64,000 bases of DNA from Candidatus Limnocylindria bacterium (GTDB lineage Bacteria; Chloroflexota; Limnocylindria; QHBO01), in assembly GCA_050692055.1 (NCBI GenBank), contig JBOGTC010000155.1, positions 11,798-75,797 on the forward strand. Reading direction: 5' to 3'. The notes under the pieces were generated by a model. It saw nothing but the letters and a program-made list of their open reading frames with translations. It made no database searches and had not been told where the DNA came from. Position 1 is the first letter of the stretch, and every line of letters starts with the position of its first letter. This document shows, in pieces, positions 11,499-45,379 of the stretch. The translations under genes were made by a program, and so were the position numbers.

Positions 11499-11639
11499 TG
11501 CAACTTATCCGAGCACCCGGCGCGTCGCGATCCACTCTCCGAGGCTCTCCGAGGCCGCAGCTTCGGTTAGTGCTCCGCTACGGGCACATTGATCCGATGT
11601 GACCGCCGCCGCATGCCGTCCCTACTCCGATAAGTTGCA
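11499..11639. repeat. Intergenic inverted-repeat element A (arms TGCAACTTATCcGAG / CTCcGATAAGTTGCA)
   Basis: 15-bp arms with one mismatch at 11499-11513 and 11625-11639. Internal CCGAGGC short repeats. Confidence 0.6.
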
Positions 11640-11732
11640 CACGCGCGGCAAGCGCCACCAGGCGAGCGAAGCCGGGAGAGGCCGCAGGCATGTTGACCCC
11701 ACTCCGCGCAGAGTGGGCTTCCCGCGGCGTCG

Positions 11733-11738
11733 TATAGT
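11733..11738 (+). promoter_or_regulatory. -10 box TATAGT, 7 nt upstream of the histidine kinase ATG (leaderless layout)
   Basis: Sequence cgTATAGTggaatccATG. Confidence 0.4.
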
Positions 11739-11745
11739 GGAATCC

Positions 11746-13419
11746 ATGGGGGACCGCCCACGATCTCCAGACGCCAACGGCGGTGCGCCGAGCAGGCCGG
11801 CGCGCCCGGAGCAGAGCCTCGACGATCGACTCATCGAATCAGAGCGCCGATTCAGCGAACAGGCCGTGCTCGAGGAGGCGCTGCGCCGCCAGTCGCTCGA
11901 GCTGGCGCGGCAGATGGAGTCCCAGCGGCGCCTGCTCGCCATCAACGAGAAGCTGCTCTCGATGCGCGACTCGCGCGAGGTGCTCGAAACCATCGCGGCC
12001 AGCCTCAAGCAGGTGGTCAGCTACGACAACCTCGGCATCTACCGCGTCGACCGCGAGGCGCAGGTGCTGCGCCCCGTCCTGGCCCGCGATCGGAATGCGA
12101 CCGAGGTGCTCGCCTACCCGGTGCCCTTCGGCAAGGGCCTGATGAATTGGGCGGTATCGCACCAGGAGCCGCTTCTCATCAACGACGCATTGAGTGACCC
12201 GCGCGCGATCCAGATCCCGGACACGCCCTTGGAGCCGGAGGCGATCGTGATCGTGCCGCTGGTCGTGGAGGGCGAGGTGTTGGGCGCACTCAACATCGGG
12301 CGCGTGGGGCGGGAGGAGGTCGCGTTCAGCGACACCGATTTCGAGCTGGTCCAGCTGTTCGCCAGCCAGGCCGCGATCGCCGTCGCCAACGCCCGCCTGT
12401 ACGACGAGCTGCAGGAGTCGGAGCGCCGCTACCGGTATCTCGTCGACCACTCGCCGGATATCGTCTGGTCGGTCGACGCCGAGGGACGCCTCACATTCCT
12501 CTCGGATTCCCTCCATGAACGAACCGGCTGGCAGCCGGCCGATCTCCTGGGCCGCCACTTCGGGATCCTGACCGATGCCGAGGCCCGCCCCGAGGCCGAC
12601 GCCGCGTTCCGCCGCATGCGCGAGCAGCCGGGCAAGGAGCAACGCCTGCGCATCGAGCTTCGGCTGAAGGGCAACCGTCGCGCGCCGGTGGAGATCACGA
12701 TGATCGGGAGCGAGGTGGACGGACGATTCACCGGCGCGCACGGAGCGGTCCGTGACGTGACCGAGCGTGAGCGTCTCGAGCTCTCGCTGCGCGAGCAGGC
12801 AGGGGAGCTGGCCGCTTCGGCCGAGCGCGCCAACCTCGCCCGCGAGCTTCACGACTCGGTGACGCAGGCGCTGTTCTCCATCGGCCTCACCCTGCGCAGC
12901 CTCGACCTCCTTCTGGAGACCGATGTCGACGCCGCGCGCACGAAGCTCATCGAGCTGCGCGAGCTTCAACGCGACGCGTTGTCCGAAATGCGCTCGCTCA
13001 TCTTCGAGCTGCGGCCGACGGACCTGGAGCAGGAAGGGCTGACCGCCGCCCTCCGCAGCCATGCATCCGCCGTCCAGGGACGCACCGGGTTGTCGGTCAG
13101 CGTCGACGCGGAGCTCCCGTCCCGGCCCGGGCTCGAGATCGAGGAGGCCCTCTATCGCATCGCCCAGGAGGCGCTGCACAACGTGGTGAAGCATGCCAAC
13201 GCCGGCGAGGTGCAGATCGGCCTCAGCGCGAACGGCGGCACCGTGTGCCTGACGGTTGCCGACGACGGCATCGGGTTCGATCCGGACTCGGTCGCTCGGG
13301 GACACATCGGCCTCATCGGCATGCGCCAACGGGCGGATCAGATCGGGGCCGAGCTGAGGATCAGCAGCACGGTGGGCGCCGGGACGCGCGTGGAGGTGTC
13401 CGCGCCGGCGGGGGATTGA
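11746..13419 (+). CDS. Cytoplasmic GAF-PAS sensor histidine kinase (HisKA_3/NarL-partner type)
   Basis: GAF-like and PAS-like regions are followed by the H-box ARELHDSVTQALF and a HATPase_c region (HNVVKHA, DDGIGF, GLIGMRQRA). No response regulator is adjacent. Confidence 0.85.
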   Translation: MGDRPRSPDANGGAPSRPARPEQSLDDRLIESERRFSEQAVLEEALRRQSLELARQMESQRRLLAINEKLLSMRDSREVLETIAASLKQVVSYDNLGIYRVDREAQVLRPVLARDRNATEVLAYPVPFGKGLMNWAVSHQEPLLINDALSDPRAIQIPDTPLEPEAIVIVPLVVEGEVLGALNIGRVGREEVAFSDTDFELVQLFASQAAIAVANARLYDELQESERRYRYLVDHSPDIVWSVDAEGRLTFLSDSLHERTGWQPADLLGRHFGILTDAEARPEADAAFRRMREQPGKEQRLRIELRLKGNRRAPVEITMIGSEVDGRFTGAHGAVRDVTERERLELSLREQAGELAASAERANLARELHDSVTQALFSIGLTLRSLDLLLETDVDAARTKLIELRELQRDALSEMRSLIFELRPTDLEQEGLTAALRSHASAVQGRTGLSVSVDAELPSRPGLEIEEALYRIAQEALHNVVKHANAGEVQIGLSANGGTVCLTVADDGIGFDPDSVARGHIGLIGMRQRADQIGAELRISSTVGAGTRVEVSAPAGD

Positions 13420-13428
13420 GGGCGAGGA

Positions 13429-13504
13429 TGGAGCGGGAGACGAGGCTCGAACTCGCGACATCCACCTTGGGAAGGTGGCGCTCTACCAACTGAGCTACTC
13501 CCGC
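13429..13504 (-). tRNA. tRNA-Gly (anticodon CCC), CCA encoded
   Basis: Minus strand reads GCGGGAGTAGCTCAGTTGGTAGAGCGCCACCTTCCCAAGGTGGATGTCGCGAGTTCGAGCCTCGTCTCCCGCTCCA, which folds as a cloverleaf. Anticodon loop is TTCCCAA. Confidence 0.9.
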
Positions 13505-13563
13505 CCGCGAGCCGGTCCGATCATAGCGCGGCACCGTCGCCGCGTCACTCGGACACGATGCGC

Positions 13564-14259
13564 TCAGCTCGCTGCGGCGCGGGCGGCCAGCTGGCGCAGG
13601 GCCCGATTCGGGTCGCGGCGCCACGGCGGGTAGTGGGACAGCGCGATCGTCTCCACATCGAGGGCGGCAAGGCGGTCGATGGTCGCGCAGGCCTGGGCGT
13701 AGTCATGGCTGAAGAGCGAGCTGGCGTATGTCAGGCGCCCGCGGATCACCTGCAGCACGTCGCCGGTGAACAGCAACCGATGGCGCTCGGCGTACAGGCA
13801 GATGCTGCCCGGCGTGTGGCCCGGGGTGTGGACCACGCGCAGGCCGCCCAGGACCGGGATGACGTCTCCATCCTCGACCGGCTCGGCGTCCGCCGGTGTC
13901 CGGGTCATGTAGGCGATCATGCGGTTGTGGCGGGCGACGCCGTCATCGGTCCGTGTCATGACCTGTCGCAGGCTCAGGCGCAGGCCGGCGAGGTCGGCGG
14001 GGTGCATGAGGACCGATACGTGCTCGCGGTCACGGACCAGCTCGTGGAGGCCGCCGATGTGATCAGGGTGGCCGTGCGTGCACACGATGCGCTCGACATC
14101 GTCCAGCGAACGCCCGATCGCGCGCAGACGGCGCTCGATCGCGCGCCGCGCGCCGATCATGCCGGCATCGATCAGCGTGACGCCCTGGCCCGGCTCGGCG
14201 ATCAGGAAGGTGTCGGCGCCCAGCAGCCGCACCTGGTGGACGCCGGGGGCGATCTCCAT
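13564..14259 (-). CDS. MBL-fold metallo-hydrolase
   Basis: HGHPDHIGG (HxHxDH) motif in a 231-aa ORF. Confidence 0.8.
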   Translation of the reverse strand: MEIAPGVHQVRLLGADTFLIAEPGQGVTLIDAGMIGARRAIERRLRAIGRSLDDVERIVCTHGHPDHIGGLHELVRDREHVSVLMHPADLAGLRLSLRQVMTRTDDGVARHNRMIAYMTRTPADAEPVEDGDVIPVLGGLRVVHTPGHTPGSICLYAERHRLLFTGDVLQVIRGRLTYASSLFSHDYAQACATIDRLAALDVETIALSHYPPWRRDPNRALRQLAARAAAS

Positions 14260-14295
14260 CGTCGGAAGATCATACGGCCGCTCGGCGCGGCGGCT

Positions 14296-14601
14296 CTACC
14301 GCAGCCAGAAGAGCCAGATGGCGTCGGCGACGCCCACGACCGCCCAGAAGCCAATGATCAGCGTGGGCCTGCGCAGGATGCATTTCGACCAGCTCACGCC
14401 CAGCGTGATGGAGCGCGCATAGAGGCCGATGGCGACCACGGACACCAGCAGCACGAAGACCGGCGGCGTCAGGACCCAGGCGATCAGCCCGGTCGTCCCC
14501 ATCTTGCAGAACGTGAAGGCCGCCTTCTCCCACTTCTCGGCCGGCGTCAAGGGCGGGCGGGCGAGCGCGGATGCGGAGACGTGGCCGGCGACGGTGCTCA
14601 T
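14296..14601 (-). CDS. Small integral membrane protein (101 aa), last gene of the radical-SAM operon
   Basis: MSTVAGHV... with about 3 hydrophobic helices. ATGA overlap with the radical SAM stop at 14598-14601. Confidence 0.5.
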   Translation of the reverse strand: MSTVAGHVSASALARPPLTPAEKWEKAAFTFCKMGTTGLIAWVLTPPVFVLLVSVVAIGLYARSITLGVSWSKCILRRPTLIIGFWAVVGVADAIWLFWLR

Positions 14602-16166
14602 GGCCGCGCGCTCGAGACGAGCCCGTCGAGCTGGACCAGCTGGCGAGCCCCCACCTGGCCGGCAGACGTCCGCTGCCGCAGCGAGCCGAAGAGCTGGCGC
14701 GCGCAGAACGGGATGCGCACCGGGTCCGAATCGCCGTCCACCGAGCCGACGTGCACGCAGCACTGCTGCAGGCGCTCGATGTTGAGCGTCCAGGCGTCCA
14801 TGAAGCTCTTCACGCTCAGGCGCTTCGTGCGCCGTCCGACTTCCGCCGCGGCTCCGGCCCGTCCGCCACGCACATAGCCGCCGACGCTGCGGAAGAATCC
14901 CGACAGGCCGATGTCGCAGGCCTCGCAGATATTGACGAGGTAGTCGACCAGCTCGGGGCGGCTGACCGTGGTCGTCTCGCTCATCATGCCGATGAGCGCC
15001 TCCCACAGCCCGTCGTCGGCCGCGATGCGGTTGCCCACCAGGCCCAGGTTGGCCCTCAGCCGCTCGAGCCCCACCAGGCTCGGGATGGACCGATGCCGCC
15101 CGTCGTCGCCGCGCACGAAGTAGGTGATGGCGCAGCAGTCGGGGTGGCTGCAGGGCAGGGCGATGAAGTCCTCGGCGCCGGCGCGGCCGTTCGACTGCGG
15201 CCCGATGCGCTTGAGCACCCCGGTGGTCGTCATCCGACGCATCGGGTCAATGGCGTTCGAGCGGCCGGAGCCGAAGACGGGCTGGTAGGCGACGCCGGCG
15301 ATGAAGTCGGTGTCGAAGGCGTACTCGGCCACGCGCCCGATCTCGTGGTCGTTGACGCCGTCGGCGACGACCATGACCAGGGTGGTGAAGATGCCGGCAT
15401 CGGTCAGGCGCCGAATGGCGGCCTCCTTCATGTGGCGCAGGTCCTCGCCGCGGTGGTGCAGGTGGGTGGCGAGCTCGAAGCCGTCGAACTGGAGGTAGAC
15501 CTCGACCCGGTCGCGCAGGTCGGCCAGGGCGGCCAGGAAGGCGTCGTCGCGCGCCACGCGGATGCCGTTGGTGTTGAGCAGGACGCGGGTCACCTTGCGA
15601 GCTGTGGCCTCGCGGATGATCTCGACGATCTCGGGGTGCACCGTGGGATCGCCGCCGGAGAGCATGAGCACGTCGATCTTCCCGCCTTCGCGCTCGATAG
15701 ACGCGTCGAGGGTGCGCAGGATGTGCGGCAGTCGCGCATAGCGGCCGATCCCCGGGCCCGACTCGGCGAAACAGGTCGGGCAGCGCAGGTTGCAGTTCTC
15801 GGTGACGTCGACGAGGAGGATGCAGGAGTGCTGCGTCTGGAGCTCGCCCAGACCCTGGCCGTAGCCCATCGGGATGGGCAGCACGTTATCCGGCGTATCG
15901 GGGATGATCTCGCGGGTCGGCACGCGCCACTGCTGCAGGTACTCCCACAGCTCGTAGTCCTCGTCGTAGAGGCTGACCACCTCGCCGTGCCCGCGACGGC
16001 AGTGGCGGCGGAGGTAGACCGATCCGTCCTGCAGCACGAGGTTGCCCTGCAGGATGTCGGTGGCATAGTCGACCTCGCGGTCGGGTTCCTCGGTGAAGCA
16101 TCGGCCGCAGACGGTCAGCACCATCCGCAGCGGGGTGTAGGGTCGGAGCGGAAGTGCGGTGGTCAT
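14598..16166 (-). CDS. Radical SAM protein (522 aa) with an N-terminal Cys/His mini-domain and a Cys-rich C-terminal domain
   Basis: CNLRCPTC (CX3CX2C), SGGDPT, LLNTNG; N-terminal CGRC...HCRRGH; C-terminal CSHPDCC, QQCCVHV, IPFCARQ. Start at ATG 16166 (MTTALPLRPY), with ATGA overlap on the upstream gene. Confidence 0.85.
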   Translation of the reverse strand: MTTALPLRPYTPLRMVLTVCGRCFTEEPDREVDYATDILQGNLVLQDGSVYLRRHCRRGHGEVVSLYDEDYELWEYLQQWRVPTREIIPDTPDNVLPIPMGYGQGLGELQTQHSCILLVDVTENCNLRCPTCFAESGPGIGRYARLPHILRTLDASIEREGGKIDVLMLSGGDPTVHPEIVEIIREATARKVTRVLLNTNGIRVARDDAFLAALADLRDRVEVYLQFDGFELATHLHHRGEDLRHMKEAAIRRLTDAGIFTTLVMVVADGVNDHEIGRVAEYAFDTDFIAGVAYQPVFGSGRSNAIDPMRRMTTTGVLKRIGPQSNGRAGAEDFIALPCSHPDCCAITYFVRGDDGRHRSIPSLVGLERLRANLGLVGNRIAADDGLWEALIGMMSETTTVSRPELVDYLVNICEACDIGLSGFFRSVGGYVRGGRAGAAAEVGRRTKRLSVKSFMDAWTLNIERLQQCCVHVGSVDGDSDPVRIPFCARQLFGSLRQRTSAGQVGARQLVQLDGLVSSARP

Positions 16167-16600
16167 ATCAGCACCGGTCCACTCATTGCCATACACGTCC
16201 CGCCGAGCAGGAGGGCGGAGATGAGCGGCGCCACCAGGGCCACGGCCATGCCCCGACCAAGAAGCGCGCGACCGATCAAGCCTGATAGCCCCAAGCCGAT
16301 CAGCAGCACCACGCCCAGCACCACCACCACGATCCAAACGTAGTCCGCGCTCGTCGCTCCCAGCAGGAGCCAGACGGTGGCCACCGCCAGGGCGGCCACG
16401 TGCAGGCCGATCGCCCACCGCCAGAATCGCGATCGAATGGCGCGGGCCTCAGCCAGCTGAGGCCCACGCGCCTCCATCTCACGTAGCGCCGCGTCGATCT
16501 CGGCCGGGTCGTGCCCGGCCGCGATCAGCTGCTTCCGCAGCGCCTCGGTGGTGTACTTGGATCCATGCTCGCGCAGGTACGCCTCGATCTCGGGTCGCAT
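16163..16600 (-). CDS. Membrane protein (145 aa) with a soluble helical N-terminal domain
   Basis: MRPEIEAYLREHGSKYTTEALRKQL... followed by 3-4 hydrophobic helices. SD GGGAG lies inside the end of the upstream gene. Confidence 0.55.
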   Translation of the reverse strand: MRPEIEAYLREHGSKYTTEALRKQLIAAGHDPAEIDAALREMEARGPQLAEARAIRSRFWRWAIGLHVAALAVATVWLLLGATSADYVWIVVVVLGVVLLIGLGLSGLIGRALLGRGMAVALVAPLISALLLGGTCMAMSGPVLI

Positions 16601-16604
16601 GTGT

Positions 16605-17417
16605 CTATCTCCCTTCCATGGCGATCAATGGTTGCGGCTTCGGGACGTGGTACACGCCGCCTCGCAGCTGTCGCGCGAAATGCAGAAGCAGGAGCGCGAC
16701 GAGCGGGATGAGGACGAGCTGCGGCCCGGTGAGGCCCAGCGCCTGCACCTCGTTGCCGCGCACGAACTCGACGCCGAAGCGGAAGAGGCCGTAGGCGAGC
16801 AGGTAGGCCTTGAGGGTGTCGCCGCGGACCGGGAGCAGCGGTCCACGCGCGGCGATCACTCCGAAGGCGGCGGCGTGGAAGCCGATCTCGTACAGCATGC
16901 TGGGGTGCATCGGTCCGTCGCAGCCAGGGCAGCGCGGGAAGGCCGCGGCGGTGGAGGCGTCGACGGTCATCGCCCACGGCAGGTCGGCCGGCGTGCCCAG
17001 CGGCAGCTCCGACAGGAAGCAGCCCACGCGGCCGATGGCGAGGGCCAGCGGGATGGCGGCGGCGTAGTAGTCGCCGGTCGAGACGGTGTAGCCAAGGGCG
17101 CGCTTGGACAGCACGATCGCCAGGTACCCGCCGGCCAGGCCGCCGATGATGCTCTTCGGCCCGTGGGTCAGCACGTAGCTCAGCGGCAGGCCAGCGGCGG
17201 CCACGTCGCCGATCGCCTCCCAGCTGGTCAGCAGGCGCGCGCCGACGGCGCCGCCCAGCAGCGCGCTCAGGCTGATCACAACGATGCGCGAGCCGAGCAT
17301 GCCGTCGCGGCGGAGCGCGCGGTAGTAGAGGGTGAAGCCGGCGACCAGGCCGAGCACGGTGAAGGCGTCGTGGGTCGCGATCGTCAGCGGGCCGATCTCG
17401 GCGAGGATCGGATGCAC
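16605..17417 (-). CDS. Divergent prolipoprotein diacylglyceryl transferase (Lgt) family paralog
   Basis: Polytopic membrane protein with an HPSMLYE motif. The Lgt signature region reads GRVGCFLSE instead of GRxGNFxNxE, and there is an extra CPGC insert. Confidence 0.75.
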   Translation of the reverse strand: MHPILAEIGPLTIATHDAFTVLGLVAGFTLYYRALRRDGMLGSRIVVISLSALLGGAVGARLLTSWEAIGDVAAAGLPLSYVLTHGPKSIIGGLAGGYLAIVLSKRALGYTVSTGDYYAAAIPLALAIGRVGCFLSELPLGTPADLPWAMTVDASTAAAFPRCPGCDGPMHPSMLYEIGFHAAAFGVIAARGPLLPVRGDTLKAYLLAYGLFRFGVEFVRGNEVQALGLTGPQLVLIPLVALLLLHFARQLRGGVYHVPKPQPLIAMEGR

Positions 17418-17446
17418 GGCCCGACCCTACGGCAGGCGCCCTGCGG

Positions 17447-18364
17447 TCAGACTGCGGCGCTGTTCAGCAGCCGTCGATACGAGTCGTAGCGCCCCTCTGA
17501 GATCGCGCCGGACTCGACGGCGGCGCGTACGGCGCAACGCGGCTCGTGCAGGTGGCTGCAATCATTGAACGCGCAGCCGCCGAGGAATGGCCGGAACTCG
17601 ACGAAGCACCAGGCGAGCTCGGTGGACGGGATCTGCCACAAGCCCAGCTCGCGGATGCCGGGCGTATCGGCCACGAAGCCGCCCTCGACGGGATGCAGCT
17701 CGGCCACCGAGGTCGTGTGCCGGCCCTTGCGCAGCGCCTCGCTGACGTCGGCCGTCGCCAGGCGCAGTCCGGGCTGGATGAGGTTGAGCAGCGTTGACTT
17801 GCCCACGCCTGACGGGCCGGCAACGATCGACAGGCGGCCCGCCAGACGCTGCCGGAGATCGTCGACCCCGTCACCGGTCCGGGCGCTGGCATACACGACC
17901 TCGTAGCCGATGGACCGATACGGCTCGAACATGCGCTCGGGCTCGTCGGCGCCGACGAGGTCCACCTTGTTGGCCACGACGATCGCCTCGATCTCGTTCT
18001 GCTCGGCCACGACCAGGAAGCGGTCGACCAGCCGGGGGTTCGGCGGCGGATCGGCGCAGGCGAAGACCGCCACGACGAGGTCGAGGTTGGCGACCATCAC
18101 GTCCTCGCGCCATGAGCCGCGCGGGCCGGGCTGGCGGCGGCTGAAGCGGCTGCGTCGCGGAGCGACCTCCTCGATGATGCCGGTCCCTTCGGGAAGCAGG
18201 CTGACCCTGACGCGGTCGCCGATGACGGCCAGGTCGCTCGACTGGCGCGTTCTCTTGAGCAGGCCGCGGATGCGGCACTCGACGAGCTCCGACTTCCCGT
18301 CCAAAGCGACGGTGTAGAAGCCGGATCGAGCGCGCAGCACGGTTCCGGTGAGCGTGTCGTTCAT
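17447..18364 (-). CDS. rsgA: Ribosome small-subunit-dependent GTPase A
   Basis: Circularly permuted GTPase motifs (VANKVDLV then GPSGVGKSTLLN) and a C-terminal zinc knuckle (C..C.H..EP.C). Start at ATG 18364, with ATGA overlap on the upstream GNAT. Confidence 0.85.
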   Translation of the reverse strand: MNDTLTGTVLRARSGFYTVALDGKSELVECRIRGLLKRTRQSSDLAVIGDRVRVSLLPEGTGIIEEVAPRRSRFSRRQPGPRGSWREDVMVANLDLVVAVFACADPPPNPRLVDRFLVVAEQNEIEAIVVANKVDLVGADEPERMFEPYRSIGYEVVYASARTGDGVDDLRQRLAGRLSIVAGPSGVGKSTLLNLIQPGLRLATADVSEALRKGRHTTSVAELHPVEGGFVADTPGIRELGLWQIPSTELAWCFVEFRPFLGGCAFNDCSHLHEPRCAVRAAVESGAISEGRYDSYRRLLNSAAV

Positions 18365-19230
18365 CCAAGCGCGCCGATGACGTTGCCGTAGATCGTCTCG
18401 AAGCGCCTGGTGACGCCGGAACCGCGCCGCATGCGCCCATCCCACGGATCGAGCTGCACGCCCAGATCGCGTAACCAGGCTGCGCCCGGCTCGTTGTCGA
18501 GCGGGAGGTTCGTGCTCAGCCAGCCGAGCTGTGGGGCCAGGCGGAACGCGGCGGAGAGCAGCGCCGACGCCGCGGCTGGATCATCCGCCAGCCACGGTCC
18601 GAGGCGTCCTCCCGCGTCTCGCAGCACGGCGTAACCCGCCAGCGAGCCATGACGTCGGACGAGGAGCGCGGGGCGGTCCGGATCCGCGAGCGTGGTGGCC
18701 AGCACCGGCGTGCGGTCACCCCCGAAGCGCGCCTCGTCGTATGCGGCGACTTCGGCGAGGCCCGAGGGCGGCGCGTCCGTGACCGCATCCTCCGGCGCGA
18801 CCGCCAGGTCGACGCTCCGCTCGATTCGGGCGCCGGCGTTGGAGCCTGCCAGCACGAATCCGTGGCGGGCATAGAGCTGGCGGCCGTCAGCGGTGGCGTT
18901 CAGCTCGACCTGCGTGCACCCGCGCTCGCCCTCCAGGAACGCCAGCACCGCCTCGAGAATGGCGCTGCCCAGGCCACGCCGGCGATGAGGGGCATCCACG
19001 ACCATGTTCCCCACGACGCCGAGCGCCCCGTAGCAGATGCCGGAGCCGACCGCCAGCACATCGCCCGTGCCATCGACCGCAAGGTAGCAGCGAGCGTGCG
19101 GCGCCGACATCGCGTCGCGCAGCGCCCATTCGAACGTATGCCAGCCGACCTGCGTGCGGAGGGCGGTGATGATGGGCAGGTCGTCCGGCGTGGCACGTCG
19201 CAGCGCGACGCCGTCGAGGAGCGAGGACAT
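18361..19230 (-). CDS. GNAT acetyltransferase with a C-terminal extension domain
   Basis: GNAT core NMVVDAPHRRRGLGSAILEAV. Start at ATG 19230. Confidence 0.7.
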   Translation of the reverse strand: MSSLLDGVALRRATPDDLPIITALRTQVGWHTFEWALRDAMSAPHARCYLAVDGTGDVLAVGSGICYGALGVVGNMVVDAPHRRRGLGSAILEAVLAFLEGERGCTQVELNATADGRQLYARHGFVLAGSNAGARIERSVDLAVAPEDAVTDAPPSGLAEVAAYDEARFGGDRTPVLATTLADPDRPALLVRRHGSLAGYAVLRDAGGRLGPWLADDPAAASALLSAAFRLAPQLGWLSTNLPLDNEPGAAWLRDLGVQLDPWDGRMRRGSGVTRRFETIYGNVIGALG

Positions 19231-19238
19231 GCGCCGCG

Positions 19239-19268
19239 AGTGTACCGGCGCGCGGCGGTCGCTAGCAT
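19239..19268. promoter_or_regulatory. Back-to-back divergent leaderless promoters: TACACT (minus, 8 nt to ATG 19230) and TAGCAT (plus, 8 nt to ATG 19277)
   Basis: agtgta at 19239-19244 and tagcat at 19263-19268, inside a 46-bp intergenic region. Confidence 0.4.
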
Positions 19269-19276
19269 GGCGCGAC

Positions 19277-20488
19277 ATGGAGGAGCTGGCTCGGCGTTAC
19301 CTCGGCCTTGTCGTGCGCATGGCACGCCATCGGCCCGACCTGCTCGAGGCGTTCGCAGGCCCTGACGAGCTGAGCGAGGCCGTAGCCGGCGAGGCCTTGA
19401 CACCGCTGTCGGAGCTGCACGACGAGGCGCTGCGGATCGAGGCGGACGCGAACGAGGCCCCCGCCATCTCGGATCCAGAGCGGCGTCGCGCGCGATGGCT
19501 GGCGCTGCAGGCGGCGGCCCTGGCCGCATCGGCGCGGGTGCTGCAGGGCGAGGAGATCGGCCTGCCGGATCTCGTCGAGTCGCTGTGCGACCTGGCCGCC
19601 GAGAGGACGCCGGAGCCGGAGCTGATCGCGGCTCACCGGTTGCTCGATGCGGCGCTGCCCCCCGGCGCTTCGCTGCGGGCCAGGCTCGCCGCCCATCGCG
19701 GTGCCATGGCCGTCCCGCCTGAGCACGTGCCCGCGGCCGTCGAGGCCCTCGCCGAGCTCTTGCGCGAGCGGGCCGCCAGCGACCTGGGACTGCCGGACGA
19801 CGAGTCGCTGGCCTTCGAGCCGGTTCACGCCGCCGGCGAGGCCTGGCACGTACGCGCCCACCCCGAGCGGCCGCTGCGCACGCGCCTCGAGCTGAACCTG
19901 TCCACCCCGTGGAGCGTGGACGAGATCGTTCGTGCCGCAGGCGGCGAGGCCTATCCCGGCGGGCACGCGGCGCGCACGATCCGCGAGGCCACCTCGGGCC
20001 GGACCCATCCGGAGCTCCTGGCCTGGATCCGGCCCGCTCCGGAGGCGAGCATCAGAGCTGGGATCGGCGCAGTCGGTCGCGAGGTGATCCTGGGCGACTT
20101 CGAGCTCGCCGCCGAGCTCCGCCGGATCGGCCGGCAGCTCGGGTTGCGCTGGGAGCCCGAGCGCGCGCTGGAGGTCGGGCGCGCCCGTGGTCGCCTTGCC
20201 GCTGCGGTCGCGAACGCGACCCTTCTGCTCCATCACGACGGCCTGCCGGCATCCGAGGTGCAGGCCTACCTCGCCGAGATCGCGCTCCTGGAGCCGGATG
20301 CGGCCGATCGAGTCATGTCGCTCCTGGCGGACCCGCTGCGCAGCGTCGAGCCCTTCGCCCGCGCCCACGCGCCGGGGCTGGTGCGCGAATGGCTGTCTCT
20401 CACCGGCCAGACCGATGGGCTGCGCAGGCTCATGGTCGAGCCGCTGACGCCCGGACAGCTTCGCGCCGAAGCCGGCGTAACTGCCTGA
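19277..20488 (+). CDS. Conserved hypothetical protein (403 aa, helical)
   Basis: Long ORF with high-GC3 coding character. Start at ATG 19277 (MEELARRYLG...). I recognise no family with confidence. Confidence 0.5.
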   Translation: MEELARRYLGLVVRMARHRPDLLEAFAGPDELSEAVAGEALTPLSELHDEALRIEADANEAPAISDPERRRARWLALQAAALAASARVLQGEEIGLPDLVESLCDLAAERTPEPELIAAHRLLDAALPPGASLRARLAAHRGAMAVPPEHVPAAVEALAELLRERAASDLGLPDDESLAFEPVHAAGEAWHVRAHPERPLRTRLELNLSTPWSVDEIVRAAGGEAYPGGHAARTIREATSGRTHPELLAWIRPAPEASIRAGIGAVGREVILGDFELAAELRRIGRQLGLRWEPERALEVGRARGRLAAAVANATLLLHHDGLPASEVQAYLAEIALLEPDAADRVMSLLADPLRSVEPFARAHAPGLVREWLSLTGQTDGLRRLMVEPLTPGQLRAEAGVTA

Positions 20489-44491: not shown

Positions 44492-45379
44492 GTGATCGAT
44501 CCCATCGCCGTCGAGATCGGCCCGTTCCAGCTTCACTGGTACGGCATCATCATCGCCTCCGCCGTGCTGATCGCCGCCCTGCTCGGCGCGCGCGTGGCGC
44601 GGATGCTGGGCGAGAGCCCCGACGACGGGTGGTCGATGCTGCTGCTGGTCGTGGTCCTGGCCGTCGTCGGCGCCCGGATCTACCACGTCATCCACCAGTG
44701 GGACTTCTATCTCGTCAACCCGGCCCTCATCCCGCAGATCTGGAACGGCGGAATCGGCATCCCGGGCGCGGTCGCCGGCGGCGCACTGGCGATCTTCCTG
44801 TACACGCGTTCGAAGGGACTCACTACGGCCCGCTGGCTCGATATCTTCGCGCCGGCGCTGCTGCTGGGCCAGGTCATCGGCCGTCTCGGCAACTTCGTGA
44901 ACCAGGAGCTGTACGGACCGCCCACCGACCTGCCGTGGGGCATCCCGATCGAGGCCGCGAACCGCGTGCCGCCCTGGAATGACCTCAACGCCTACCCGGT
45001 CGAGTCCACCGTCTTCCATCCGCTGTTCGCCTACGAGGCGCTGCTCAACCTGGTCGGCATGGTGGTGCTGCTGCTCGTCATTCGACGCTTCGGGCATCGG
45101 CTCTTCGCCGGCGACCTGGCCCTGATGTACATCATCTGGTACGGCGCCGTGCGTGCTGTCCTAGAGACCTTCCGCACCGACAACTGGGTGATCCTGGGCG
45201 TGCCGACCGCGATCTGGGTGGGCGTCATCGGCTTCGTGCTGGCCGGAGCCTGGCTCCTGTACCGCCATCGCCGCGGCTGGGGCTCGCCGATGATCCGACC
45301 CAGCCAGGAGCCGCCACCAAAGGGGACCGGCGAGGCCACCGCCGAGCATCGGCCCGGCCCGGAGGCTTCACCTGGCTGA
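44492..45379 (+). CDS. lgt: Prolipoprotein diacylglyceryl transferase (canonical copy)
   Basis: Contains the full Lgt signature GRLGNFVNQELYG. Confidence 0.85.
   Translation: MIDPIAVEIGPFQLHWYGIIIASAVLIAALLGARVARMLGESPDDGWSMLLLVVVLAVVGARIYHVIHQWDFYLVNPALIPQIWNGGIGIPGAVAGGALAIFLYTRSKGLTTARWLDIFAPALLLGQVIGRLGNFVNQELYGPPTDLPWGIPIEAANRVPPWNDLNAYPVESTVFHPLFAYEALLNLVGMVVLLLVIRRFGHRLFAGDLALMYIIWYGAVRAVLETFRTDNWVILGVPTAIWVGVIGFVLAGAWLLYRHRRGWGSPMIRPSQEPPPKGTGEATAEHRPGPEASPG

Follow-up and report, generated by a model that had tools for sequence, protein, structure and literature searches.

The closest described relatives of the system reported here are the archaeal radical S-adenosylmethionine (SAM) enzymes of glycerol dialkyl glycerol tetraether (GDGT) synthesis, known as Tes or GDGT-MAS (MJ0619, PDB 7TOL/7TOM, NCBIfam NF045702), whose chemistry and structure have been described (PMC9433317, PMC8941075) and whose crystal pockets held bacterial phospholipids (PMC9433317). 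Bacterial radical SAM enzymes of this kind, namely the acidobacterial Tes homologues and Mss of Thermotogota and Bacillota, have been proposed or shown to couple the fatty-acyl tails of glycerolipids (PMC8941075, PMC13159169, PMC13274423, PMC13023045), and the literature that we searched reports no Lgt partner for either. The lipoprotein enzyme Lgt of Escherichia coli (PDB 5AZB/5AZC) in turn absolutely requires Y26, H103, R143, N146, G154 and R239 (PMC13251419). Herein we analyzed a 64,000-nucleotide (nt) stretch of contig JBOGTC010000155.1 from a Candidatus Limnocylindria bacterium (~70% G+C; hereafter the window), in which four minus-strand genes at 14296-17417 form a tightly packed cassette. 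They encode a divergent Lgt paralog, a membrane protein of 145 amino acids (aa) that we call M145, a 522-aa radical SAM enzyme of the Tes/GDGT-MAS superfamily and a 101-aa membrane protein, M101. The enzyme families are known; as far as the searchable literature shows, what is new is their obligate pairing, the N146C hallmark tied to that pairing and the two families of Cys-bearing small proteins, and we found no publication in which an Lgt paralog is connected with radical SAM enzymes, Tes-like or other. The cassette and the comparator used below consist of the following features, with the evidence for each in brackets.

16605..17417, minus strand: Lgt-family paralog, 270 aa, 'GRxGC' type (Pfam LGT, TIGR00544, phmmer against 5AZB, residue table)
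17007..17033, minus strand: altered Lgt signature GRVGCFLSE, residues 129-137, with Cys133 at 17019-17021 (sequence)
16920..16931, minus strand: CPGC, residues 163-166, in a shortened extracytoplasmic head region (sequence, alignment)
16163..16600, minus strand: M145, 145-aa membrane protein, proposed acceptor (C-termini of relatives, hydropathy)
16193..16210, minus strand: codons of L-L-G-G-T-C, the G-x-C motif of M145, with Cys136 at 16193-16195 (sequence, family alignment)
14598..16166, minus strand: radical SAM enzyme, Tes/GDGT-MAS superfamily, 522 aa (NCBIfam, 7TOL match, structure model and Foldseek)
15966..16118, minus strand: rubredoxin-like zinc-ribbon N-domain of this enzyme, C20, C23, C56, H60 (weak Pfam Zn_ribbon_HMPTM match, conservation)
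15771..15794, minus strand: radical SAM cluster motif CNLRCPTC, residues 125-132, C125, C129, C132 (sequence, alignment)
14694..15152, minus strand: C-terminal auxiliary-cluster/lipid-pocket domain, C339, C344, C414, C417, C469, C470, C488, K453, V473 (7TOL alignments, conservation)
14296..14601, minus strand: M101, 101-aa two-helix membrane protein with conserved Cys motifs and no Pfam/NCBIfam family
14506-14508, minus strand: C32 of M101 in A-F-T-F-C-K, invariant in the family
14380-14382, minus strand: C74 of M101 in K-C-x-L-R-R-P, invariant in the family
44492..45379, plus strand: canonical housekeeping lgt (HWYG, GRLGNFVNQELYG), comparator outside the cassette (TIGR00544, residue table)

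A preliminary description of this locus had presented the four genes as a tightly coupled operon, and inspection of the open reading frames (ORFs) and the sequence reproduced its coordinates exactly. A 4-nt gap (ACAC) separates the Lgt-like ORF (16605-17417) from the 145-aa ORF (16163-16600), and ATGA stop/start overlaps join the latter to the 522-aa ORF (16163-16166) and the 522-aa ORF to the 101-aa ORF (14598-14601), a packing that shows translational coupling. All of the motifs quoted earlier were likewise found (GRVGCFLSE, CPGC, HPSMLYE, CNLRCPTC, SGGDPT, NTNG, CGRC...HCRRGH, CSHPDCC, QQCCVHV and IPFCARQ).

The cassette is conserved well beyond this contig. A scan of one genome per GTDB species returned at least 599 pattern matches, 554 of those listed encoding a relative of the radical SAM protein, and the best 80 of these at least 554 genomes were retained, which are nearly all Chloroflexota (Limnocylindria and 'Chloroflexia' metagenome-assembled genomes, MAGs) plus an Eremiobacterota clade (50-55% identity). 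Of the 78 related loci with enough flank, 75 have the Lgt paralog upstream in the same orientation, one has it on the opposite strand and two lack it; an M101 homologue follows the radical SAM gene downstream in 71 of 82, so the arrangement is beyond chance. Eremiobacterota cassettes run from the Lgt paralog through radical SAM to M101 and have no M145-type gene within 7 kb, and one Chloroflexota subclade has M145 and no M101. An exhaustive search of representatives returned 4672 radical SAM relatives at E ≤0.001, with scores that drop sharply past the clade of the window enzyme (the query clade), from 782 to 439 and 400 and then to ~240 bits; no acidobacterial Tes was recognized among the representatives. 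The Lgt/radical SAM pairing recurred in six further lineages, in varied gene orders and at radical SAM identities to the query down to ~28-32%:

P0124: 43% identity, LGT upstream
P0125: 42% identity, LGT downstream
P0142: 34% identity, LGT upstream
P0154: 30% identity, LGT upstream
P0159 (a cluster that includes an Omnitrophota MAG protein): 32% identity; small proteins, radical SAM, ICMT/PEMT, DUF4395, LGT
P0203 (Wallbacteria MAG): 28% identity, same layout as P0159

The pairing thus spans Chloroflexota- and Eremiobacterota-named genomes as well as Omnitrophota- and Wallbacteria-named relatives, and LGT-linked radical SAM enzymes sit at three or more places in a crude neighbor-joining tree. 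The preliminary description had named two computationally checkable outcomes that would speak against its lipid-modification hypothesis, a radical SAM protein belonging to a well-characterized non-lipid family and a lack of synteny in relatives; neither was found, the four-gene synteny recurring across genomes and the Lgt/radical SAM pairing across phyla.

The radical SAM protein carries the whole four-domain architecture of GDGT-MAS/Tes in both alignment and fold (rubredoxin-like domain, linker, radical SAM core and C-terminal cluster/lipid-pocket domain), and shares with it the CX3CX2C motif, the C-C-C-H rubredoxin ligands and the C-terminal Cys at HxxC, CC and FC, although identity is only 22-23%. 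In a search of solved structures, 7TOL was the only strong sequence match (E 6.6e-36 with the single sequence; E 3.2e-49 over residues 40-486 with a 15-sequence profile). The AlphaFold2 (AF2) model, built on a 41-sequence alignment (predicted local distance difference test, pLDDT, 90.4; predicted template modeling score, pTM, 0.91), matched 7TOM/7TOL over the full length in Foldseek at template modeling (TM) scores of 0.75-0.79 (7TOM: E 1.6e-37, 537 columns), while all other radical SAM structures matched the core only at TM ≤0.35, the next being SkfB (TM 0.35). The resemblance to Tes/GDGT-MAS that had been suggested earlier is therefore borne out by NCBIfam, by the PDB sequence search and by the whole-length fold match. 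The best-scoring curated model was TrsS (NF045646), a member of the same superfamily, at 222.4 bits against a cut-off of 490, followed by Tes (NF045702; 177.8 bits, cut-off 450) and the intein-containing Tes model NF045703 (106.9 bits, cut-off 1700); with both scores under their cut-offs, the protein belongs to neither the TrsS nor the Tes equivalog. It is highly improbable that the enzyme shares the uncharacterized function of TrsS, with chemistry unrelated to lipid-tail coupling: TrsS is its top NCBIfam match (222 bits) and a TrsS-like relative (P0147) also adjoins a Cys-bearing membrane protein (DsbD_TM), yet the score lies far under the cut-off, the TrsS-type context of P0147 (DsbD_TM protein plus methyltransferase, no LGT) is unlike that of the window cassette, and TrsS is listed as a selenoprotein family only (PMC13188914), whereas the window ORF has no in-frame UGA.

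Several sites set the window enzyme apart from archaeal Tes. Its CX3CX2C cysteines (C125, C129, C132) are invariant in 41 sequences, and in the rubredoxin-like site C20, C23 and C56 are invariant and H60 near-invariant, the pattern C20-X2-C23...C56-X3-H60 having one residue more before the His than the C9X2C12X20C33X2H36 of GDGT-MAS (PMC9433317). The same domain carries a clade-specific insertion of ~12 aa within residues ~25-41 (EEPDREVDYATDILQGN), with invariant P28, R30, Y34, D37, L39, Q40 and G41, which could be a candidate docking surface for a partner protein. The [Fe4S4]N ligand cysteines C73, C77 and C80 of GDGT-MAS are replaced by L, Q and G, while the His (H113) is kept, and a conserved loop, PIPMGYxxGLGxLQTQHSC (with the three replacements in its P-I-P-M-G-Y..G-L-G part), stands in place of the N-cluster Cys region throughout the query clade. 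The N-cluster Cys are missing in 84 of 84 clade loci, whereas three relatives that are closer to Tes or TrsS in type (L086, L087, L088) retain GCPxDCGLC. In the C-terminal domain, C344 (HPDC), C469/C470 (QQCC) and C488 (PFC) align with the HQHC, RCC and PFC of GDGT-MAS and are probably the ligands of the [Fe4S4]C cluster, and the window enzyme differs from GDGT-MAS in additional conserved Cys at 339, 414 and 417. Met439 and Tyr459, which are invariant in 1000 archaeal homologues (PMC9433317), correspond to K453 and V473, both invariant in the query clade; since M439A GDGT-MAS retains robust activity (PMC9433317), these replacements do not exclude activity. As judged from these alignments, the protein is a separate subfamily of the Tes/GDGT-MAS superfamily, and unlike Tes it is locked genomically to the Lgt paralog and the Cys-bearing small membrane proteins.

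The Lgt paralog passes Pfam LGT (PF01790; 104.5 bits, cut-off 24.9, E 7e-30) and fails TIGR00544 (52.3 bits, cut-off 118.9) together with every NCBIfam Lgt equivalog, and is thus a member of the family and not an equivalog, whereas the canonical lgt of the window passes TIGR00544 (173 bits). In phmmer it matches 5AZB over residues 2-230 (E 2e-7), and HPSMLYE lies at its residues 171-177. Its AF2 model was unusable (pLDDT 45.6), the alignment being shallow (75-79% identical sequences). An NCBI Ca. Limnocylindria MAG has a protein of 100% identity to it, annotated 'prolipoprotein diacylglyceryl transferase', and the closest database matches of the window likewise come from Ca. Limnocylindria MAGs. 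Its signature, GRVGCFLSE, had been set against G-R-x-G-N-F-x-N-x-E, the PROSITE signature of Lgt. With the family test, the altered residues and the canonical gene at 44492-45379 all in agreement, the view that this is a divergent second copy holds.

We compared residues (given in E. coli numbering, in which Cys133 of the window protein is position 146) in a table of E. coli Lgt, the canonical window lgt and 11 radical-SAM-linked paralogs from seven lineages. Of the six residues essential in E. coli, the window paralog has R143, G154 and R239, while Y26, H103 and N146 have become H, I and C. The Chloroflexota-clade paralogs, including the window copy, retain D129, G142, R143, G154, H196-P (in E. 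coli Lgt H196-P-x-x-L-Y, which is also shared), Y201, R239, E243 and R246, and single exceptions occur among distant paralogs (R143 is K in L087, D129 is N in L089 and H196 is Q in L079). Position 146 is Cys in 11 of the 11 paralogs and seven lineages, and C133 is at least 90% conserved across the Chloroflexota and Eremiobacterota copies. Y26 is replaced by H, S, G or A, with Y in L089 as the sole exception, and E151 is displaced or is L, C or D. Loss of H103 was rejected as a mark of divergence: the canonical window lgt lacks it as well (P there), so only Y26 and N146 are diagnostic. Two paralog subtypes can be told apart, GRxGCFLSELPLG (window) and GRxxCFxGGCCYG (Eremiobacterota and others). 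C163, P164, G165 and C166 are at least 90% conserved in close relatives, CPYC or CPFC also occurs in relatives, and the alignment has no CPxC in Eremiobacterota-type paralogs. This CPGC is not the extra insert that it had first been taken for, as it lies inside a head region of reduced length compared with E. coli Lgt and the window's canonical copy; it is possibly a redox-active or disulfide motif.

Distant Lgts with N146C and E151C/D variants exist, and the Lgt of Leptospira, itself an N146C enzyme, gives partial complementation in E. coli (PMC13251419), which makes transferase competence of the window paralog plausible and means that N146C alone is no proof of a new reaction. Going by the residues retained and replaced, the paralog has probably remained a transferase that depends on phospholipid, with a changed specificity for donor and/or acceptor. 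The Mycobacterium smegmatis protein MSMEG_5408 shows exactly the Y26H and N146C changes and is regarded as a minor, non-essential Lgt of low activity (PMC13251419; bioRxiv 10.1101/2025.01.07.631728), as would suit a redundant or low-activity housekeeping copy in an incidental neighborhood. That explanation was already disfavored and strikes us as barely credible, given that 75 of 78 loci and seven lineages keep the adjacency through several gene orders and radical SAM identities down to ~28-32%, that the genes are translationally coupled in the window and that the flanking genes (rsgA and a metallo-beta-lactamase (MBL) gene) are not conserved neighbors.

The two small proteins had gone unrecognized in the preliminary description. 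This stands in so far as Pfam, NCBIfam and profile searches gave no family for M145, M101 or their remote counterparts, and the public annotation of both is 'hypothetical protein'; their conserved Cys motifs, however, proved to be the most informative signal of the locus, and make them likely acceptors or partners. M145 consists of a ~60-aa N-domain and three hydrophobic segments, with Cys136 nine residues before the C-terminus, and hydropathy and charge distribution suggest that the N-domain is cytoplasmic and that the Cys lies where the third segment reaches the outer face. Iterative searches of related loci recovered one to three tandem copies of the family between the Lgt paralog and the radical SAM gene. 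A Cys falls within the last 32 residues of 91 of 97 distinct C-termini, typically 7-14 from the end, with Gly at -2 in 83 of 86 and I/L/T/S/V at -1, after an uncharged run with a median of 22 residues. What follows the Cys is a tail of 3-15 residues in 66 cases and, in most of the others, an acidic 135-164-aa domain with two more Cys. The remote cassettes also contain M145-like proteins (L084, L085, L087, L089, L091 and L093, the last with six tandem copies); their N-domains are unrelated and often zinc ribbons, the last hydrophobic segment ends near the Cys, and the Cys is present in 11 of 13. Tandem copies, variable N-domains (a helical domain or a zinc ribbon) and a conserved C-terminal hydrophobic helix with G-x-C give the family an acceptor-like pattern, on which the proposal that it is the acceptor is based.

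The geometry resembles a lipoprotein signal peptide and lipobox moved to the C-terminal part of the protein, the shared elements being a basic loop, an uncharged ~22-aa helix, small residues and a Cys at the outer face. It differs in that the motif sits on the third helix or the C-terminus, with Gly at -2 and not -1, so that a bulky residue or Thr at -1 fails the [GAS] position; the window protein, with its third hydrophobic segment and Thr at -1, does not match [LVI][ASTVI][GAS]C on an N-terminal signal peptide. Eukaryotic CAAX processing shares a Cys near the C-terminus and a short tail, and an ICMT-family gene is present in two cassette variants. In eukaryotes the ICMT family methylates the lipidated C-terminal Cys, and the presence of the gene fits processing of such a Cys here. 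Unlike in CAAX or lipoprotein processing, no Lsp or CAAX protease is conserved in the cassette, and the likeness of M145 to either system is one of analogy. As an observation apart, a ~290-aa M145 subtype (L016, 5679-6548; also L004-L020) retains the N-domain, the three helices and L-G-G-S-C, and continues into an acidic ~140-aa domain that is probably extracytoplasmic, contains a second Cys (likely in a disulfide) and ends in I-S-G-T-x-x-W-x-C-E. Only this subtype (LGGSC) would presumably fit the PROSITE lipobox pattern.

Small genes that resemble precursors, stand in tandem and join a variable 'leader' domain to a conserved C-terminal core are also what one would expect of a RiPP-like system (a RiPP being a ribosomally made peptide that is modified after translation), in which the radical SAM enzyme would modify the small proteins directly, for example by joining a Cys sulfur to a lipid-tail or peptide carbon, and the Lgt paralog would be secondary. 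The Tes mechanism does include a carbon-sulfur bond to the substrate (PMC9433317), and all four proteins have many conserved Cys. We nevertheless consider such a system quite improbable: the closest structural relative of the enzyme is a lipid enzyme, peptide maturases match its core only (TM ~0.3), Pfam and NCBIfam scans detected no RiPP recognition element (RRE) or SPASM domain in it, and the target Cys is predicted to lie across the membrane from it.

M101 families share the motifs A-F-[TS]-[FL]-C-K and [RK]-C-[FW]-x-[KR]-x-P, both kept in Chloroflexota, Eremiobacterota and the P0125 clade; in the P0124 clade both Cys are retained in more diverged surroundings. By the positive-inside rule, C32 and C74 would lie on opposite faces of the membrane. 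M101 co-occurs with radical SAM proteins that lack the [Fe4S4]N cysteines. A relationship to DUF4395 was considered and is not claimed, as the hhalign match was confined to F-x-F-C-[KR] (probability 13%). The DUF4395 proteins of the L089 and L093 cassettes do begin F-x-F-C-R-W, resembling A-F-T-F-C-K of M101, with weak hhalign support, and we found no functional literature on DUF4395.

Taken together, the reading that we tentatively favor, while rating it a little short of probable, is that the cassette is a dedicated protein-lipidation pathway in which a glycerolipid anchor, or its donor, is remodeled by radical tail chemistry. At the outer leaflet, the Lgt paralog would take a diacylglyceryl-type group from a phospholipid and attach it to M145-type proteins at their G-x-C cysteine. 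With its 5'-deoxyadenosyl radical and C-terminal [4Fe-4S] cluster, the Tes-like enzyme would act on the lipid's hydrocarbon tails, while these still belong to the donor or once they form part of the anchor, and the expected product would be a tail-coupled anchor, macrocyclic or membrane-spanning. M101 might connect the radical SAM enzyme, which is cytoplasmic, with the Lgt paralog, which faces outward, as an adaptor in the membrane or as a thiol relay. The more specific claim of a new post-translational modification, whereby an N146C Lgt lipidates a C-terminal G-x-C cysteine and a Tes-like enzyme cross-links the lipid tails, we regard as on the unlikely side.

A number of points weigh against protein lipidation. 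The sides of the membrane do not fit easily, with a cytoplasmic radical SAM enzyme but an Lgt active site and a G-x-C cysteine that are both predicted to be at the outer leaflet, and the topology of the small proteins comes from hydropathy only. With no M145-type gene within 7 kb of the Eremiobacterota cassettes, and no M101 in one Chloroflexota subclade, neither small protein is universal. The canonical lipobox failed on Gly at -2 and Thr at -1 in the window, and a three-helix protein has no obvious need of a lipid anchor. For GDGT synthesis in a heterologous host, archaeal Tes is enough by itself (PMC8941075), so Tes-type enzymes need no partners intrinsically.

The main alternative is a free-lipid pathway, in which the radical SAM protein would be a membrane-spanning-lipid synthase that couples fatty-acyl tails end to end, as has been proposed or demonstrated for the acidobacterial Tes homologues and Mss, the Lgt paralog would handle the glycerolipid (backbone or head-group transfer, or presentation of phosphatidylglycerol) and the small proteins would be subunits or anchors. 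In favor of this are the whole-length homology with GDGT-MAS, the occurrence of other superfamily members in fatty-acid-type clusters (KS/KR/ACP, that is, ketosynthase, ketoreductase and acyl carrier protein, or FabA), and lipid genes near some cassettes (a diacylglycerol kinase-like gene in L091, an acyltransferase/AMP-binding fusion in L089). Bacterial Tes homologues are proposed as enzymes of branched GDGTs (brGDGTs) and iso-diabolic acid, and Acidobacteria are where they have been linked with brGDGTs and with tetraesters of the iso-diabolic kind (PMC8941075; PMC13023045 citing Chen et al. 2025), and Chloroflexota homologues have already been counted as candidate brGDGT producers (PMC11868695). 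The free-lipid pathway does not account, however, for small proteins that have a near-invariant G-x-C, occur in tandem and vary in their N-domains, for an M101 with an invariant pair of Cys or for an N146C that is universal. Tes being enough on its own in a heterologous host (PMC8941075) tells against this pathway also, as do the missing [Fe4S4]N ligands and the replacement of the Met439 and Tyr459 of archaeal Tes, and we judge it rather unlikely.

Returning from the protein-lipidation reading to the wider superfamily, the radical SAM proteins of L089 (4604-8215) and L093 (2021-9086) cluster with Omnitrophota and Wallbacteria MAG proteins, and their cassettes run from one to six tandem zinc-ribbon small proteins with a C-terminal G-[AS]-C through radical SAM, ICMT/PEMT and DUF4395 to LGT, with an extra hydrolase after LGT in L093. 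Two loci without LGT look like free-lipid pathways of a fatty-acid or polyketide-like type: L092 (1-6404) has KS, KR, ACP and nitroreductase genes with two tandem Tes-like genes, and L088 (660-8857) has FabA, KR and further radical SAM and B12-radical SAM genes. TrsS-/Tes-like relatives in L086 (169-3438) and L090 (5001-7321) are accompanied by a half-size DsbD_TM protein and/or a SAM methyltransferase, the L090 protein, in a methyltransferase context, clustering with Hodarchaeales (Asgard) MAG sequences; a Cys-bearing membrane partner seems to be a recurring theme of the Tes/TrsS-like superfamily. Seven contigs (L014, L015, L028, L035, L040, L049 and L080) encode radical SAM proteins 55-82% identical to the query and are filed under the unrelated names Angelobacter, Methylomirabilota, Rubrobacter, Clostridia, Verrucomicrobiia and Rhodospirillales, which probably reflects mis-binning, not horizontal transfer. 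The 3.29-Mb contig L001 (GCA_013390565.1) has three M145 copies, and insertion sequence/transposase genes (rve, DDE) bracket its cassette distantly (597-2412 and 16126-17445). The genomic position of the cassette differs among close relatives.

The surroundings of the cassette in the window comprise the following features.

18361-19278, minus strand: two-domain GNAT acetyltransferase
17447-18445, minus strand: rsgA, flanking the cassette
13564-14259, minus strand: MBL-fold hydrolase, flanking the cassette
13429-13504, minus strand: tRNA-Gly(CCC), just 3' of the MBL hydrolase gene
11599-13419, plus strand: GAF-PAS-HisKA_3-HATPase sensor histidine kinase, convergent with the tRNA/MBL end of the gene string

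rsgA and the MBL-fold hydrolase do flank the cassette on the same strand, as had been noted. They were rejected as members of the module, being neighbors of it only in the closest relatives and elsewhere adjacent to each other away from the cassette. An ATGA overlap at 18361-18364 (minus strand) joins the GNAT gene to rsgA, whose true start is probably the ATG at 18362-18364 (Met28 in its longest ORF), so that the packed same-strand chain consists of GNAT, rsgA, the cassette and the MBL hydrolase. A promoter/terminator scan of 13300-19400 found none inside the cassette, which is uninformative at 70% G+C, and its sole sigma-70-like promoter match was at 13548-13520; an Rfam scan of the region returned the tRNA only.

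The bearing of these results is chiefly on how bacterial Tes homologues are read. They are the leading candidates for the enzymes that make brGDGT and iso-diabolic-acid lipids, whose source organisms are a long-standing problem for palaeoclimate proxies. In the large Chloroflexota/Eremiobacterota subfamily the cofactor sites depart from those of Tes, and the enzyme is genomically locked to two kinds of partner, an Lgt paralog and small proteins with Cys, which suggests a function different from, or more elaborate than, that of Tes; finding a 'Tes homologue' should consequently not be taken as a sign of brGDGT potential unless the subfamily is assigned. The cassette also offers a concrete hypothesis on what the puzzling Y26H/N146C Lgt paralogs of M. 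smegmatis and elsewhere may do, in a small, testable gene set with a predicted substrate (Cys136 of M145) that could reveal a new kind of protein lipid anchor. If the protein-anchor model is true, it would add a new post-translational modification and alter the reading of 'Tes homologues' in environmental genomics: the anchor would be macrocyclic or membrane-spanning, the ICMT-like step in some phyla would make the pathway a bacterial counterpart of CAAX-type C-terminal lipidation, and many Chloroflexota and other bacterial 'Tes homologues' now counted as potential brGDGT producers would not be free-lipid synthases.

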